From the IMG/VR virus record IMGVR_UViG_2667528037_000002, positions 1 to 64,000 of that record: 64,000 nt of DNA, one strand, 5' to 3'. Positions 25,547 to 28,681 of this stretch are shown piece after piece. The notes beneath the pieces are model-generated. The model made no database searches. It had not been told where the DNA came from and saw only the letters and a program-made list of their open reading frames with translations. A program made the translations under genes and the position numbers. The first letter of the stretch is position 1, and each line of letters opens with the position of its first letter. Origin of the DNA: a virus (Duplodnaviria > Heunggongvirae > Uroviricota > Caudoviricetes).

Positions 25547-25573
25547 GACTCAGAATGTATAGCGCACTATACG
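25544..25573. promoter_or_regulatory. 30-bp repeat copy 1 (CATGACTCAGAATGTATAGCGCACTATACG): palindrome GTATAG-N4-CTATAC plus -10-like TATAC. Leaderless-type promoter/operator for minus-strand island.
   Basis: Inverted copy at 29063..29092. Start codon of gene 25295..25546(-) is inside the repeat. Confidence 0.5.
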
Positions 25574-25601
25574 AAAGAACAAGCCTTAACGACCTTGCTT
25601 C

Positions 25602-25633
25602 TGTGTATAGCTCTGTATACGTTCCGAGTCATG
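25602..25633 (+). promoter_or_regulatory. Third related promoter copy (TGTATAGctcTGTATACgtTCCGAgTCATG) driving secreted-protein gene
   Basis: Shares TATAC-N2-TCYGA-N-TCATG leader with the two 30-bp repeats. Confidence 0.4.
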
Positions 25634-25969
25634 AAAAGCCTTTATGTAAAACGTATTGCCGTCATCGGTGCCGCCATCGCGGCCCTAACGGTGCTCCCAA
25701 CTGCGACCGCCTCCGCGTTTCCCGACCGTTGCCTGTATGCCGCGACAGACGCCAAGACCTGCCTGGGCGCCCGACCGGCGCCCTTCACGCCAGCCGGTGG
25801 CGGCGGATACAAACCACCGGAGGACCCGGAATGCCCTGAGGGCCAGCACCGTCCATCTACAGCTCCGGCAGGTCCTCGCGCGGGCGAAACTGGAGGTAAC
25901 AGCGCTGGTAGCGGGTCTGCTAGTAGCGGTGGTTCCTCGGCGAGCGGAGGAGCTGGCGCCGGACGGTGA
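25631..25969 (+). CDS. Secreted protein with signal peptide, Gly/Ser-rich C-terminus
   Basis: Met 112 of ORF 25298..25969. MKSLYVKRIAVIGAAIAALTVLPTATASA|FP. Confidence 0.55.
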   Translation: MKSLYVKRIAVIGAAIAALTVLPTATASAFPDRCLYAATDAKTCLGARPAPFTPAGGGGYKPPEDPECPEGQHRPSTAPAGPRAGETGGNSAGSGSASSGGSSASGGAGAGR

Positions 25970-26016
25970 TGGTCGCGGCTACCGAGCGGCTATACAGCCA
26001 AGCCTCAATCCTGTTG

Positions 26017-26034
26017 CAGCACCGCTATACCGCG
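26017..26034. promoter_or_regulatory. Perfect 18-bp palindrome GCTATACCGCGGTATAGC upstream of ncRNA array
   Basis: Read directly. Arms related to the GTATAG/CTATAC operator motif. Confidence 0.4.
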
Positions 26035-26065
26035 GTATAGCTTCGTTTTCAGACAACAAAACAAC

Positions 26066-26189
26066 GGACGACGTGAACAGAATGCAGGTCGGTTATCTCG
26101 GGGTACGCCCCCGTAGTTCAAGTTAGAACGCCCCGAGCCAAGCGGGGAAATGGAGCCAAACCCGCCCAGCGCCAACCACGTTCACGTCA
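26066..26189 (+). ncRNA. Y-RNA-like unit 0 (variant): closing stem GACGTGAAC/GTTCACGTC, internal D-arm-like and CCCCG/CGGGG hairpins
   Basis: 9-bp perfect terminal pairing. Starts with shared motif GTGAACAG..GCAGGTCGGTTATC. Confidence 0.35.
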
Positions 26190-26220
26190 CCCCCAGGCCA
26201 CAACTACATAGACACCAGAT

Positions 26221-26359
26221 GGTGCGAGCAGGACGCAGGTCGGTTACCACTTGTAATGGAGAGGTCGCGGGTTCGAGTCCCGCCAGCCAGCCCCCGGCTG
26301 TAGCTCAGTTGGCAGAGCGCTAAACCCCGGTCAGCACACACACGTTCGCCCCATCACCC
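26221..26359 (+). ncRNA. Y-RNA-like (YrlA-type) unit 1 with permuted tRNA-like module: T-arm GCGGGTTCGAGTCCCGC, closed acceptor-like hairpin CAGCC-agccccc-GGCTG, D-arm TAGCTCAGTTGGCAGAGCG
   Basis: Canonical T-loop and D-loop sequences in T-then-D order with hairpin-closed acceptor stem. No anticodon arm. Flanked by conserved 5' and 3' motifs. Confidence 0.5.
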
Positions 26360-26381
26360 AACACAACTCCATGCACAGCAC

Positions 26382-26507
26382 GGTGTGAACAGGACTTCGT
26401 TCGGTTATCTCCTTTCCTGAGAGAGACGCGGGTTCGAATCCCGCCAGCCATGAAAGTGGTTGTAGCTCAGCGGCCTAGAGCGCTAAACCCGGACGAAACC
26501 CACACGC
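26382..26507 (+). ncRNA. Y-RNA-like unit 2: T-arm GCGGGTTCGAATCCCGC, hairpin CAGCC-atgaaagt-GGTTG, D-arm TAGCTCAGCGGCCTAGAGCG. Ends GGTGTGA/TCACACC pair.
   Basis: As unit 1. Exact 7-bp terminal pairing. Confidence 0.5.
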
Positions 26508-26547
26508 TCACACCACCTCAAACACCAGCAGACGCATGCGTGCAGGC

Positions 26548-26687
26548 GGTGTGGACAGGACGCAGGTCGGTTACCAAAACAGTCAGGTGTGGGTTCGAGC
26601 CCCACCACCTCGCCCGCGGGGTGTAGCCCAATTGGTAGAGGCAATTGTCCACATAGGCCGGTCAGCACCCCACACGCCCACACCACC
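26548..26687 (+). ncRNA. Y-RNA-like unit 3: T-arm GTGGGTTCGAGCCCCAC, short hairpin, D-arm GTGTAGCCCAATTGGTAGAGGC
   Basis: As unit 1. Terminal GGTGTGGA/CCACACC pairing. Confidence 0.45.
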
Positions 26688-26712
26688 TACGCGCACGCAC
26701 GACAGACAACCC

Positions 26713-26832
26713 GATGTGAACAGGAAGCTCGGTCGGTTATCACTCAATTGGTTAATGCAGGTTCAATCCCTGTCGCCTGCACTTAGTGCGGGTGTAAAAG
26801 CGAAATCCCGGTCAGCACACACACGTTCACAT
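26713..26832 (+). ncRNA. Y-RNA-like unit 4 (divergent): closing stem GATGTGAAC/GTTCACATC, T-arm GCAGGTTCAATCCCTGT, hairpin CCTGCAC-tta-GTGCGGG
   Basis: 9-bp perfect terminal pairing. T-loop TTCAATC. Confidence 0.45.
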
Positions 26833-26853
26833 CACCCGCCCAATAGCCCTCGC

Positions 26854-26935
26854 GGGTGGCACGAGCAGGATCGCAGTCGGTTACCCCACCCCTCGCAAGG
26901 ATGACGAACCCCGGCAGCCCTTCACACGTTCGCGC
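26854..26935 (+). ncRNA. Degenerate/partial Y-RNA-like unit 5 (5' motif present, no T-arm) abutting rsr RBS
   Basis: Shared 5' motif GGTGGCACGAGCAGGATCGCAGTCGGTTACC. Confidence 0.2.
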
Positions 26936-26965
26936 CGCCCGCACCCTCTAACAAGGAGATGCACG

Positions 26966-28681
26966 GTGGACGTTCTCACCACTATCGGAACCCGTAAGAC
27001 GCCGCAGTCGCAGCAGGCGGACCCCCGGCAGGTGAAGAACTCCGCCGGTGGCTACACCTTCACCATCGACGACGAGGCCCTGCTGCACCGCTTCCTCACC
27101 CTCGGCACCGACGGCGGCACCTACTACACCACCGCCCCCGACCTCACCAAGGAAACAGCGGCCGTCGTGCTCCGCGCAGCAGCGGCCGACCCAGTCCGCC
27201 TCGTCCAGCACATCGTCGAGGTGTCTGTGGCCGGACGCGCACCCCGGCAGAACCCGGCCCTGTTCGCCCTCGCCATCGCCGCCGCAGCAGAGGACGTCGA
27301 CGGCCGCCGCGCCGCCGCAGCAGCCCTGCCCACGGTCGCCCGCACCGGCACCCAGCTCTACACGTTCGTGAAGTACATGGAGCAGTTCCGCGGGTGGGGC
27401 CGCGCCATGCAGCGCGCCGTCGGCGGCTGGTACCTCGACAAGCCCGTCGACCGCCTCGCCTACCAGCTGGTCAAGTACCGGCAGCGCGAAGGCTGGATGC
27501 ACCGGGACCTACTACGCCTGTCCGGCCCCACCACGGCGGACCCGGCCCGCCGCCTCGCCTTCAACTGGGCAGTCGGCAAGGGCCTGAACGACTACATCGG
27601 TAAGGTCCAGCCCCTCACTGCCGAGCAGTTGAAGGCGGGGGAGCGCAACGCCTCCCGGCCCAAGCTGCCTAACGTCGAGCTTGTGGTTGACCACCCCCTG
27701 GCGATCATCGAGGACTTCGAGGATGCCCAGCGCGCCACCCAGCCCAAGGAATGGGTGAGCATCATTCGACGTGGCAACGGCCTTCCCTGGGAAGCGTTGC
27801 CAGACGTCGCGCTCAACTTCACCGCTGTGTGGGAAGCGCTGATTGAGCACGGTCTGCCGCAGACCGCATTGATGCGCCAACTGCCTCGCCTGACCCGGCA
27901 TGGGGTCCTCCATGGTGAATATCTGGATCGCGTGGTTGCTCAGCTCCAGGACGCCGACCGTCTACGCAAGGGACGCGTACACCCGGTCAACGTTCTGATC
28001 GCACAGCGCACCTACGCGTCCGGGCGTTCGGCGCGCGGCGACTCCACCTGGACGCCGGAACGCAAGGTCGTGGACGCTCTGGACGCCGCGTTCTACAACG
28101 CCTACGGCGCGGTAGAGCCGTCGGGCAAGCGCACCCTGCTGGCGCTGGACGTGTCCGGCTCCATGGGCGCCGCGATCTCGGGTATGCCGCTGACATGCCG
28201 CGAGGCCGCAGCCGCACTCGCACTCGTCACCACCAACGTTGAGCCCGACCACGAGGTCGTCGGCTTCACCGACGGACGACAGGCCGCGCGCTCGGGCTAC
28301 GGCTACCGGTCCCAGCACCACATCACCCCGCTGGACATCACACCGCGCCGCCGCCTCGACGACGTGTGCCGGTACACCGCCGGACTCAGCTTCGGCGCCA
28401 CCGACTGCGCACTCCCGATGCTGTGGGCACAACAGTCCAAGCGCGAGTTCGACACGTTCGTGGTCATCACCGACAACGAAACCTGGTTCGGCGACGTCCA
28501 CCCACACCAGGCGCTCCGCGACTACCGCAACAAGACGGGCATCAACGCCCGCCTGATCGTTGTCGGCATGACGGCAACCCGCTTCACCATCGCCGACCCC
28601 GACGACCCCGGCCAGCTCGACGTGTCCGGTTTCGACTCGGCTGTCCCGCAGCTGATCTCGGACTTCTCGGCCGGACTGTAG
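26966..28681 (+). CDS. rsr: Ro60/Rsr ortholog (TROVE domain + C-terminal vWA/MIDAS)
   Basis: Long colinear similarity to Ro60 C-terminal half (HRDLLRLS, LDAAFYNAYGAVEPSGKRTLLALDVSGSM, FGATDCALPMLWAQ, VVITDNETWFGDVHP, RLIVVGMTATRFTIADPDDPGQLDVSGFD). GTG start with RBS aaggag. Confidence 0.92.
   Translation: MDVLTTIGTRKTPQSQQADPRQVKNSAGGYTFTIDDEALLHRFLTLGTDGGTYYTTAPDLTKETAAVVLRAAAADPVRLVQHIVEVSVAGRAPRQNPALFALAIAAAAEDVDGRRAAAAALPTVARTGTQLYTFVKYMEQFRGWGRAMQRAVGGWYLDKPVDRLAYQLVKYRQREGWMHRDLLRLSGPTTADPARRLAFNWAVGKGLNDYIGKVQPLTAEQLKAGERNASRPKLPNVELVVDHPLAIIEDFEDAQRATQPKEWVSIIRRGNGLPWEALPDVALNFTAVWEALIEHGLPQTALMRQLPRLTRHGVLHGEYLDRVVAQLQDADRLRKGRVHPVNVLIAQRTYASGRSARGDSTWTPERKVVDALDAAFYNAYGAVEPSGKRTLLALDVSGSMGAAISGMPLTCREAAAALALVTTNVEPDHEVVGFTDGRQAARSGYGYRSQHHITPLDITPRRRLDDVCRYTAGLSFGATDCALPMLWAQQSKREFDTFVVITDNETWFGDVHPHQALRDYRNKTGINARLIVVGMTATRFTIADPDDPGQLDVSGFDSAVPQLISDFSAGL

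Follow-up and report, generated by a model that had tools for sequence, protein, structure and literature searches.

A six-unit array of Y-RNA-like genes, three with a permuted tRNA-like module, upstream of a Ro60 ortholog in a mycobacterial prophage-type sequence

The stretch of DNA that we analysed (positions 1 to 64,000 of the IMG/VR virus record IMGVR_UViG_2667528037_000002, class Caudoviricetes; "the window" below) contains six tandem Y-RNA-like units at 26066-26945 on the plus strand, directly upstream of an ortholog of the gene for Ro60/Rsr (Table 1). Over the stretch that holds the array and Ro60, the window is 95-96% identical to the Mycobacterium abscessus prophages prophiGD43A-5 and prophiT37-1. 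The units share a common frame: each opens with ...GTGNGRNCAGGA...[GT]TCGGTTAY and closes with ...CCCGG...CACGYYCRC. The 5′ motif [GT]TCGGTTA is found in all six and has no further copy on the plus strand of the window; the 3′ motif CACGYYCRC, counted within 25900-27000 only, is likewise present in every unit. A scan of the window with R1, a covariance model that we built from 21 diverse homologous units including window units 1-3, returned exactly six units with E values from 7e-31 to 9e-6, and the next match had E = 0.4; the retrieval of the six units is far beyond chance. The gaps between the units, measured between R1 match coordinates, are 11-20 nt long.

Table 1. Coordinates of the Y-RNA-like units, their parts and the neighbouring features in the window
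Feature	Coordinates	Strand	Remarks
Promoter-like element	26013..26041	+	TTGCAG-N16-TATAGC overlapping the palindrome CTATACCGCGGTATAG, then TTCGTTTTC
Unit 0	26066..26197	+	R1 33.1 bits, E 8.6e-6; end motifs present
Unit 1	26217..26361	+	YrlA-type Y RNA; R1 144.6 bits; RF02553 37.6 bits, E 2.2e-6
Unit 1, P1 end-stem	26218-26229 with 26344-26355	+
Unit 1, Ro60-motif region	26227-26235	+	putative
Unit 1, P2 stem	26235-26243 with 26327-26335	+
Unit 1, V hairpin	26244-26262	+	5′ of the T-arm; 7-nt loop
Unit 1, T-arm	26267-26283	+	GCGGGTTCGAGTCCCGC
Unit 1, closed helix	26284-26300	+	CAGCCAGCCCCCGGCTG; acceptor-like hairpin
Unit 1, TA	26301-26302	+	U8A9
Unit 1, D-arm	26303-26318	+	GCTCAGTTGGCAGAGC
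Unit 2	26378..26523	+	YrlA-type Y RNA; R1 116.5 bits; RF02553 28.8 bits, E 8e-4
Unit 2, module	26428-26481	+	T-arm, closed hairpin, D-arm
Unit 2, T-arm	26428-26444	+
Unit 2, closed helix	26445-26462	+	7-bp acceptor-like hairpin, GAAA loop
Unit 2, D-arm	26465-26481	+
Unit 3	26544..26693	+	YrlA-type Y RNA; R1 91.6 bits; RF02553 26.7 bits, E 3e-3, full-length match
Unit 3, module	26589-26642	+	T-arm, closed hairpin, D-arm
Unit 3, T-arm	26589-26605	+
Unit 3, closed helix	26606-26623	+	7-bp acceptor-like hairpin, CCCG loop
Unit 3, D-arm	26626-26642	+
Unit 4	26709..26842	+	Y-RNA-like; R1 63.2 bits, D-arm positions deleted in the alignment
Unit 4, D-loop-like sequence	26743-26757	+	CTCAATTGGTTAATG; occupies the V position
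Unit 4, T-arm	26757-26773	+
Unit 4, closed helix	26774-26794	+	9-bp closed hairpin
Unit 5	26854..26945	+	short 92-nt hairpin unit without tRNA module; R1 35.5 bits; last before Ro60
Ro60/Rsr ortholog	26966..28681	+	571 aa, TROVE ring and vWA; starts 20 nt after unit 5

The internal module of units 1-3 runs from a T-arm through an acceptor-like stem closed by a hairpin loop to a D-arm, and no anticodon stem-loop is found in any of the three. This is the arrangement that the original prediction, made from the sequence of the window, had described at this place. It had also assigned to the closed helix five base pairs and a loop of 7-8 nt; the helix is there, but its size is not as described, since units 2 and 3 have 7 bp and a 4-nt loop and the five pairs of unit 1 are followed by a C·A mismatch and one further pair around a CCC loop. 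Unit 3 has about 11 extra nt between its D-arm and P2. The V loop of unit-1-type RNAs, CUUNUAA (26250-26256 in the window), resembles an anticodon loop, with a U33-like residue and AA at 37-38; the same loop is seen in L010, L016, L018, L019, L029 and L031 (L numbers denote Ro60 loci used for comparison), where mostly only the middle base varies (G, C or U).

The remaining units depart from this plan. As predicted, units 4 and 0 carry divergent internal modules: unit 4 has lost the D-arm, and unit 0 combines the shared end-stems with an acceptor-like hairpin, TA and a D-like arm (GTTC/GAAC) that has no GG, and is without a T-arm. The unit 4 type is kept in L001-L013, which include prophages whose Ro60 is only 75% identical, and the unit 0 type was found only in close relatives. 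Judged by these comparisons, both appear to be conserved unit types and not products of random decay. We also observed that the two resemble complementary "half modules". Unit 5 is called YrlB-like on account of its architecture and position only.

The six RNAs presumably have the Ro60 ortholog as their protein partner. Its reading frame matches the Pfam families TROVE (PF05731, 3.5e-46) and vWA_Ro60 (PF25045, 1.8e-63), and in the Protein Data Bank (PDB) it matches 2NVO (Rsr, 2e-103), 1YVP (Ro60, 1e-99) and 9NEN (~1e-100), so that the structures of Deinococcus radiodurans Rsr and of Xenopus and human Ro60 are all found at E values of about 1e-100. The gene starts with GTG, and an AAGGAG ribosome-binding site is located a few bases 5′ of this codon. 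Related genes labelled "Ro-like RNA binding protein" occur in about 270 actinobacteriophage records.

The architecture of the array, its covariation, its synteny with Ro60 and the conservation and selection of its units could be observed directly in a comparison with 47 loci that contain relatives of the window Ro60, drawn from phage, viral-contig and bacterial-genome collections. A loose pattern search finds the T-arm, hairpin and D-arm arrangement upstream of Ro60, on the same strand, in most of the 47 loci, and the hairpins in these matches are very different in sequence across loci yet always paired. With R1 we recovered 144 units across these loci; all of them (144/144) are on the Ro60 strand and nearly all lie at most about 1.1 kb upstream of the Ro60 start. 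We wrote a six-helix structure (the end-stem P1, then P2, V, T, the acceptor-stem hairpin, AS, and D) onto a MAFFT alignment of 21 diverse full-length units, the published RNA of mycobacteriophage ET08 included, which align end to end. In this alignment 87.8% of the pair cells are paired, versus 36-45% after a shift of the 3′ partners by 1-3 columns. Changes on both sides are seen in 28 of the 40 pairs, and the observed values were reached by none of 500 shuffles; all seven AS pairs and 11 of the 12 P1 pairs show compensatory changes. A larger alignment (A3) holds 117 distinct units; because these were aligned to the model, its pair counts lean toward the structure. There 89.1% of the cells are paired versus 36-43% after sliding, with compensatory changes in 36 of 41 pairs. 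Taken by helix, the two alignments give 93-95% paired cells in AS, 97-99% in T and D, and 68-71%, together with compensatory changes, in V, and the compensatory pairs number 11-12 of 12 in P1 and 6-7 of 9 in P2.

The nucleotides that hold a tRNA in shape are also retained. Among 59 distinct units, the Levitt pair is G15:C48 in 47, A15:U48 in 10 (from at least six lineages) and mismatched in two, one of which is a genuine tandem-tRNA false positive. Both forms of the pair occur within the window array, G:C in units 1 and 2 and A:U in unit 3. The T-loop UUCRANY, the D-loop GG and the U8:A14 pair are each present in 58 of the 59 units. Covariation of the tertiary pairs between T- and D-loop had been proposed as a check on the permuted fold: the elbow nucleotides, being essentially invariant, leave no room for covariation, but the Levitt 15:48 pair does covary, from G:C to A:U. 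Orthologues of unit 1 are 75-86% identical, compared with 65-77% for the neighbouring Ro60 coding DNA and 36-65% for the spacers. Because unit 1 orthologues are more conserved than both, the comparison argues for purifying selection acting on the unit 1 RNA.

These properties correspond to those of a described class. YrlA RNAs are Y RNAs encoded within 4 kb of Ro60 and on the same strand (Chen et al. 2014, PMC4201824). In their centre the V, T, AS and D arms follow one another, and the tRNA tertiary nucleotides, including a covarying Levitt pair, are kept; such RNAs were reported from 254 bacteria and 22 phages, mycobacteriophage ET08 among them (PMC4201824). The YrlA of Salmonella is modified by TruB and DusA, and that of Mycobacterium smegmatis, with its 7-bp AS, is cut by RNase P and acquires CCA (PMC4201824). 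A crystal structure of YrlA shows a tRNA-like L-shape (PDB 6CU1; Wang et al. 2018, 10.1101/312249). In the window, the array ends 20 nt before the start codon of a Ro60/Rsr gene on the same strand. Units 1-3 have the V, T, closed AS, UA and D order, a paired end stem of the Ro60-binding type, near-invariant T and D arms and a Levitt pair that covaries between G:C and A:U; units 2 and 3 further share the 7-bp acceptor hairpin of the M. smegmatis RNA. The conserved YUAY that follows the stem is seen as GGTTAC or GGTTAT in all six units, and the V stem-loop, which is less conserved in the class, precedes the T-arm here as well. The published ET08 YrlA aligns with the window units over its whole length. 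We consider it very probable that unit 1 is a YrlA-class Y RNA gene with units 2 and 3 as its paralogues, in a six-unit array that is likely transcribed together with Ro60 and cut into individual RNAs. The original prediction of a tRNA elbow mimic presented on a Y-RNA scaffold is borne out by the Ro60 gene next door, the covarying fold, the invariant elbow and the covarying Levitt pair, and its suggestion that such a mimic may be a substrate for tRNA-modifying enzymes, RNase P or the CCA-adding enzyme would agree with the published biology of YrlA (PMC4201824). The novelty that it implied is not supported: reports from 2014 to 2018 had already described the class, its permuted topology and its occurrence in mycobacteriophages, and our finding is confirmatory. 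The size of the array (six units, seven in close relatives), the clade-specific variant of the Ro60 motif described below and the two units with half-deleted tRNA modules are mildly new. Our literature search on large Y-RNA arrays, or on Ro and Y RNA in M. abscessus prophages, returned nothing specific.

Several observations weigh against assigning units 1-3 to the YrlA class. One concerns the Rfam model of the class, RF02553: at gathering thresholds Rfam gives zero matches in the whole window, and RF02553 reaches units 1, 2 and 3 at permissive thresholds only, the best of them, at 37.6 bits, being well below its gathering score of 69 bits. However, the published ET08 YrlA scores 37.4 bits, much like unit 1, and none of the 20 Ro60 loci that we scanned passes the gathering score. 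Since the ET08 RNA and all 20 loci also fall short, this threshold does not discriminate for the actinobacterial and phage clade; in practice it misses this whole branch. A second is that the published 5′ motif, GNCGAAN0-1G, is absent and replaced by RCAGGAYG, which is two positions off; at this place the window units read GCAGGACG, ACAGGACG or ACAGAATG. Elsewhere the same position is occupied by GCCGGA in other actinophage units and by GCCGAA in some loci only (L031, L032). The change is common to every paralogue of an array and constitutes a clade-specific variant, which hints at co-evolution with the cognate Ro60. The folding of single sequences is a third point, as the minimum free energy (MFE) folds of units 1 and 3 are no better than those of shuffled sequences (z = +0.37 and +0.49) and the D-arm does not appear in MFE folds. 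The end-stem is predicted in all six MFE folds, and the fold of unit 2 (z = -3.66) includes the end-stem and the T and AS hairpins. Folding stability alone neither supports nor refutes the structure, and covariation was used instead. The covariation evidence is itself tempered by the bias of the larger alignment noted above and by the T and D stems, which hardly vary and so contribute little covariation. Finally, a related prophage is reported to be mostly silent in lysogeny (PMC8092301).

How a YrlA-type array of this kind would work can be pictured by analogy with characterised family members, from which transcription, processing, Ro60 binding, modification, effector tethering and timing are all extrapolated. 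Transcription would run from the array into the downstream phage Ro60 gene, and cleavage would release RNAs of about 90-150 nt, whose 5′ and 3′ ends would pair as two stacked stems, P1 and P2. The Ro60 ring presumably docks on the conserved 5′ strand RCAGGAYG ... GTCGGTTAY, and RCAGGAYG and GTCGGTTA are the elements presumed to be needed for Ro60 binding. At their distal end, units 1-3 would adopt a tRNA-like fold in which the acceptor stem is closed by a loop and the P2/P1 stem stands in for the anticodon arm; the T-loop (UUCRANY) and the GG of the D-loop would form the tRNA elbow, and the U8:A14 and 15:48 (Levitt) pairs would hold the L-shape. Host tRNA enzymes may recognise this mimic, and the mimic may in turn tether or gate Ro60 toward an effector such as PNPase and thereby redirect RNA decay or quality control. 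In prophiGD43A-5, a prophage of cluster MabK, a toxin-antitoxin pair is found just upstream, among early lytic genes and on the opposite strand (PMC8092301). The position among early lytic genes suggests that the array would act in early lytic growth.

The expansion to six or seven units in the M. abscessus prophage lineage invites a further, decidedly speculative thought, namely that it represents functional specialisation, with each mimic coupling the phage Ro60 to, or soaking up, a different host tRNA-binding factor during early lytic growth; units 2 and 3, with their 7-bp helices, might be cut in two by RNase P and acquire CCA. The three or four tRNA-like modules of these arrays differ in acceptor hairpins, V loops and Levitt pairs, and two conserved half-module units accompany them. 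If specialisation were true, the clade-wide change in the Ro60 motif would mark a phage Ro60/Y-RNA pair that is orthogonal to host systems. In any case the array offers a compact natural set of paralogous tRNA mimics with which one can ask what the tRNA-like domain binds.

Of the alternatives to the YrlA reading, the one that survives best gives the tRNA-like modules a role mainly apart from Ro60, in which they would serve as decoys or sponges that occupy host enzymes directed at tRNA, for example toxin or anticodon nucleases or RNase P. In its favour, the elements are carried by phages, each array has several distinct modules, the V loop CUUNUAA looks like an anticodon loop, and acceptor hairpins of 7-8 bp are the commonest length in the clade. 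Read from the sequence, the loops of unit 1 (CCC) and unit 3 (CCCG) would supply N73-C74-C75 after cleavage, and the M. smegmatis YrlA is indeed cleaved by RNase P and receives CCA (PMC4201824). However, the units all lie in a Ro60 operon and retain the Ro60-type end-stems whether or not they contain a tRNA module, and stable UUCG or GAAA tetraloops cap the hairpin in many homologues, suggesting that the closed form is the functional one. We regard a role mainly apart from Ro60 as unlikely, although a decoy or sponge role is compatible with the YrlA-class explanation.

Far less probable is the view that the array is the decaying debris of a former phage tRNA cluster, or of att-site tRNA fragments, without present function. 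In its favour, half of the tRNA module has been lost in units 0 and 4, and tRNA arrays are frequent in phages of the group (phage Farewell has four tRNAs just upstream of its Y RNA). Nevertheless, compensatory changes maintain every helix; the conservation of the units exceeds that of the adjacent coding DNA and, by a wide margin, that of the spacers; the same-strand tie to Ro60 extends across several phyla; and even the degenerate unit types are retained in arrays with Ro60 proteins only 75% identical. An att-site tRNA fragment was rejected, as the array lies in the middle of the prophage among early genes and has D-arms and covariation.

The original prediction that attempts to parse canonical tRNAs fail needs some qualification: ARAGORN and Rfam do return parses, but both were rejected on testing. 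ARAGORN calls a tRNA-Thr(tgt) at 26215-26293. The same feature is annotated as gene 51 in GenBank record MW584167 of prophiGD43A-5, which is 96% identical (L001, 1765-1843), and it was counted as the single tRNA of that prophage (PMC8092301). The parse takes the 7-nt loop of the V hairpin, CUUGUAA, which does resemble an anticodon loop, as the anticodon loop and borrows the real T-arm. The resulting cloverleaf was rejected as defective, since it forms only four of seven acceptor pairs, is mismatched in the D-stem, lacks GG in the D-loop and ends in a CCC tail. Moreover, Rfam reports no tRNA match there apart from tRNA-Sec at 18 bits (E = 1.6), the nucleotides assigned to the 5′ acceptor strand and the "D-arm" covary with the 3′ end of the unit as P1, and the perfect D-arm downstream of the T-arm is ignored. 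That unit 1 is an ordinary tRNA-Thr(UGU) gene can be given next to no credence. Gene 51 of MW584167 is probably a mis-annotation; the feature is almost certainly part of a Y RNA and not a tRNA, and the six real RNA genes of the locus are left unannotated.

The second parse joins the D-arm of one unit to the T-arm of the next, as canonical-order tRNAs split across neighbours with an insert or intron of 100 nt at the anticodon position. With permissive filters, the Rfam tRNA model RF00005 matches 26294-26452 (the unit 1 D-arm, a 100-nt insert and the unit 2 T-arm) at 33.7 bits, above its gathering score of 29, and comparable above-threshold matches occur in L018 and L033; at default gathering settings the window scan reports nothing. 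Such a long-intron tRNA had been named from the outset as the competing parse, and it failed a test of acceptor pairing on 20 distinct pairs of neighbouring units, in which the two acceptor halves match inside a unit (6.65 of 7 positions, 5.95 contiguous) but much less between units (4.1 of 7, 2.3 contiguous). The match between units 1 and 2 stems from the CAGCC common to both, the would-be intron is built from P2/P1 strands that belong to two different units and that each covary with the partner in their own unit, and there is no anticodon stem-loop, so that split tRNAs are scarcely believable here. Cross-unit tRNA matches are an expected side effect of placing permuted tRNA-like units in tandem.

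Compared with characterised YrlA systems, the window differs in more than the 5′ motif. Three such RNAs (four in close relatives) are found in an array of six to seven units, whereas the experimentally characterised systems have one YrlA and one YrlB; all window units are below the Rfam gathering threshold, and the window locus is known from sequence alone. Unit 5 is similar to YrlB and other short Y RNAs (YrlB of Salmonella and M. smegmatis, Yrn2 of D. radiodurans, Yrl1/Yrl2 of Thermus phage phiLo) in being a long hairpin with a Ro60-type 5′ strand and no tRNA module, and like the M. smegmatis YrlB it lies between the YrlA-type units and Ro60. D. radiodurans encodes several Y RNAs upstream of rsr in one precursor, and its Yrn1 tethers Rsr to PNPase (PMC4201824; 10.1101/312249). 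Yrn1 and metazoan Y RNAs are Ro60-bound RNAs with a terminal stem and a distal effector-binding module, a layout that the window units would share. However, according to the authors, the T and D elements of Yrn1 are oriented differently and Yrn1 arose independently, and metazoan Y RNAs are without a tRNA-like domain (PMC4201824).

The YrlA-type units share with canonical tRNAs the T-arm, the D-arm, U8, A14, G18G19, U54U55C56, A58, the Levitt pair and a 7-bp acceptor helix; they differ in being permuted, in the loop that closes the acceptor helix, in having no anticodon stem-loop and in their long extra stems. The permuted order recalls the circularly permuted tRNA genes that Soma and colleagues reportedly described in 2007 from the red alga Cyanidioschyzon merolae, in which the 3′ half is said to precede the 5′ half and a short linker to join the acceptor strands. 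Those genes are said to give rise, through a circular intermediate, to normal tRNAs with an anticodon loop. The window units, in contrast, have no anticodon loop, and what would be the anticodon stem continues into a Ro60-binding-type stem with free ends. The transfer-messenger RNA (tmRNA), the tRNA-like structure (TLS) of turnip yellow mosaic virus (TYMV) and mascRNA-type RNAs likewise form an L-shaped fold on a T-loop/D-loop elbow, but they have free (CCA) acceptor ends, serve translation, replication or 3′-end processing, and show neither a link to Ro60 nor a permutation.

Turning to the expression of the array, the gaps between units are short, no terminator-like site was found on the plus strand within the array or between the array and Ro60, a ribosome-binding site precedes Ro60 and a promoter-like element lies upstream. 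For these reasons the locus fits one operon whose transcript would be processed into individual Y RNAs, as has been demonstrated with YrlA and YrlB of M. smegmatis (PMC4201824). The promoter-like element (Table 1) is a candidate start of this operon. Related arrays have TTGnnn-N16-18-TACAGT, often within CTGTAC-N4-GTACAG, just 5′ of their first unit; a strict sigma-70 scan gave no promoter match, and the weaker element came from the cross-array comparison only. The hairpin at 26013-26041, which a simple scan scored as terminator-like, could instead be the terminator of a small upstream reading frame. We also observed that 7 of the window's 16 GTATAG/CTATAC hexamers cluster in 25557-26040 (among them those at 25557, 25567, 25605 and 25990), and the region of the palindrome CTATACCGCGGTATAG could be an operator or a regulated promoter of the Y-RNA/Ro60 operon. 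The small upstream reading frame (25632-25969, plus strand) would encode a protein with a signal-peptide-like N-terminus (MKSLYVKRIAVIGAAIAALTVLPTATASA...) and a Gly/Ser-rich tail, and MW584167 has no annotated coding sequence at the equivalent place. A motif AACT-N2-3-A-N-WG is found a few bases 5′ of unit starts in 15 of 55 distinct spacers, at 26204-26213 and 26366-26374 of the window and in spacers of L004, L010, L016, L018, L019, L022, L024 and L029; it may be a processing signal.

Arrays of different sizes are found in the other loci. Those of the M. abscessus-type prophages have 5-7 units, those of other phages and viral contigs 1-5, and bacterial loci mostly 1-4; the M. abscessus-type prophages, whose host is a clinically important pathogen, carry unusually large Y-RNA arrays. 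In close relatives (L004, L005 and L009), one more tRNA-like unit, the fourth, lies between the counterparts of units 1 and 2. Most actinobacterial and phage arrays end, on the Ro60 side, with a short YrlB-like hairpin of about 80-92 nt.

Open reading frames annotated as hypothetical proteins have been called on top of such RNAs in other phages. In ET08, gp219 (L003, 1584-1757) overlaps Y-RNA units upstream of Ro60 and is probably a false gene call. In Farewell, gp35 (L002, 1740-1877) lies in the short gap between the last detected unit, which ends at 1729, and Ro60, and its call is suspect.

Some units of the related arrays combine the T-arm and acceptor-like hairpin with a different D-arm that resembles that of a class II tRNA (GTGGCAGAGCGGCCTAATGC); they are found at L010 1732-1911, L012 1735-1911, L016 2218-2371, L018 2158-2309, L019 2254-2402 and L020 2257-2401, and would represent a second flavour of tRNA mimic in Y-RNA arrays. 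An arrangement that differs from the permuted YrlA type is seen upstream of Ro60 in a metagenome-assembled genome of the Isosphaeraceae (L033, 1636-1960), where canonical-order tRNA-like elements and short Y-RNA-like hairpins (GCCGAAG...GGTTATCC) alternate. One of the tRNA-like elements has a long insert at the anticodon position; it is matched by the Rfam tRNA model with 42.7 bits over 124 nt, and ARAGORN calls none there. In a Poribacteria locus (L046, 2211-2330), the T-arm, hairpin and D-arm block is repeated 72 nt apart, and the D-arm nearly abuts the next T-arm, which looks like a tandem duplication of the tRNA-like core.

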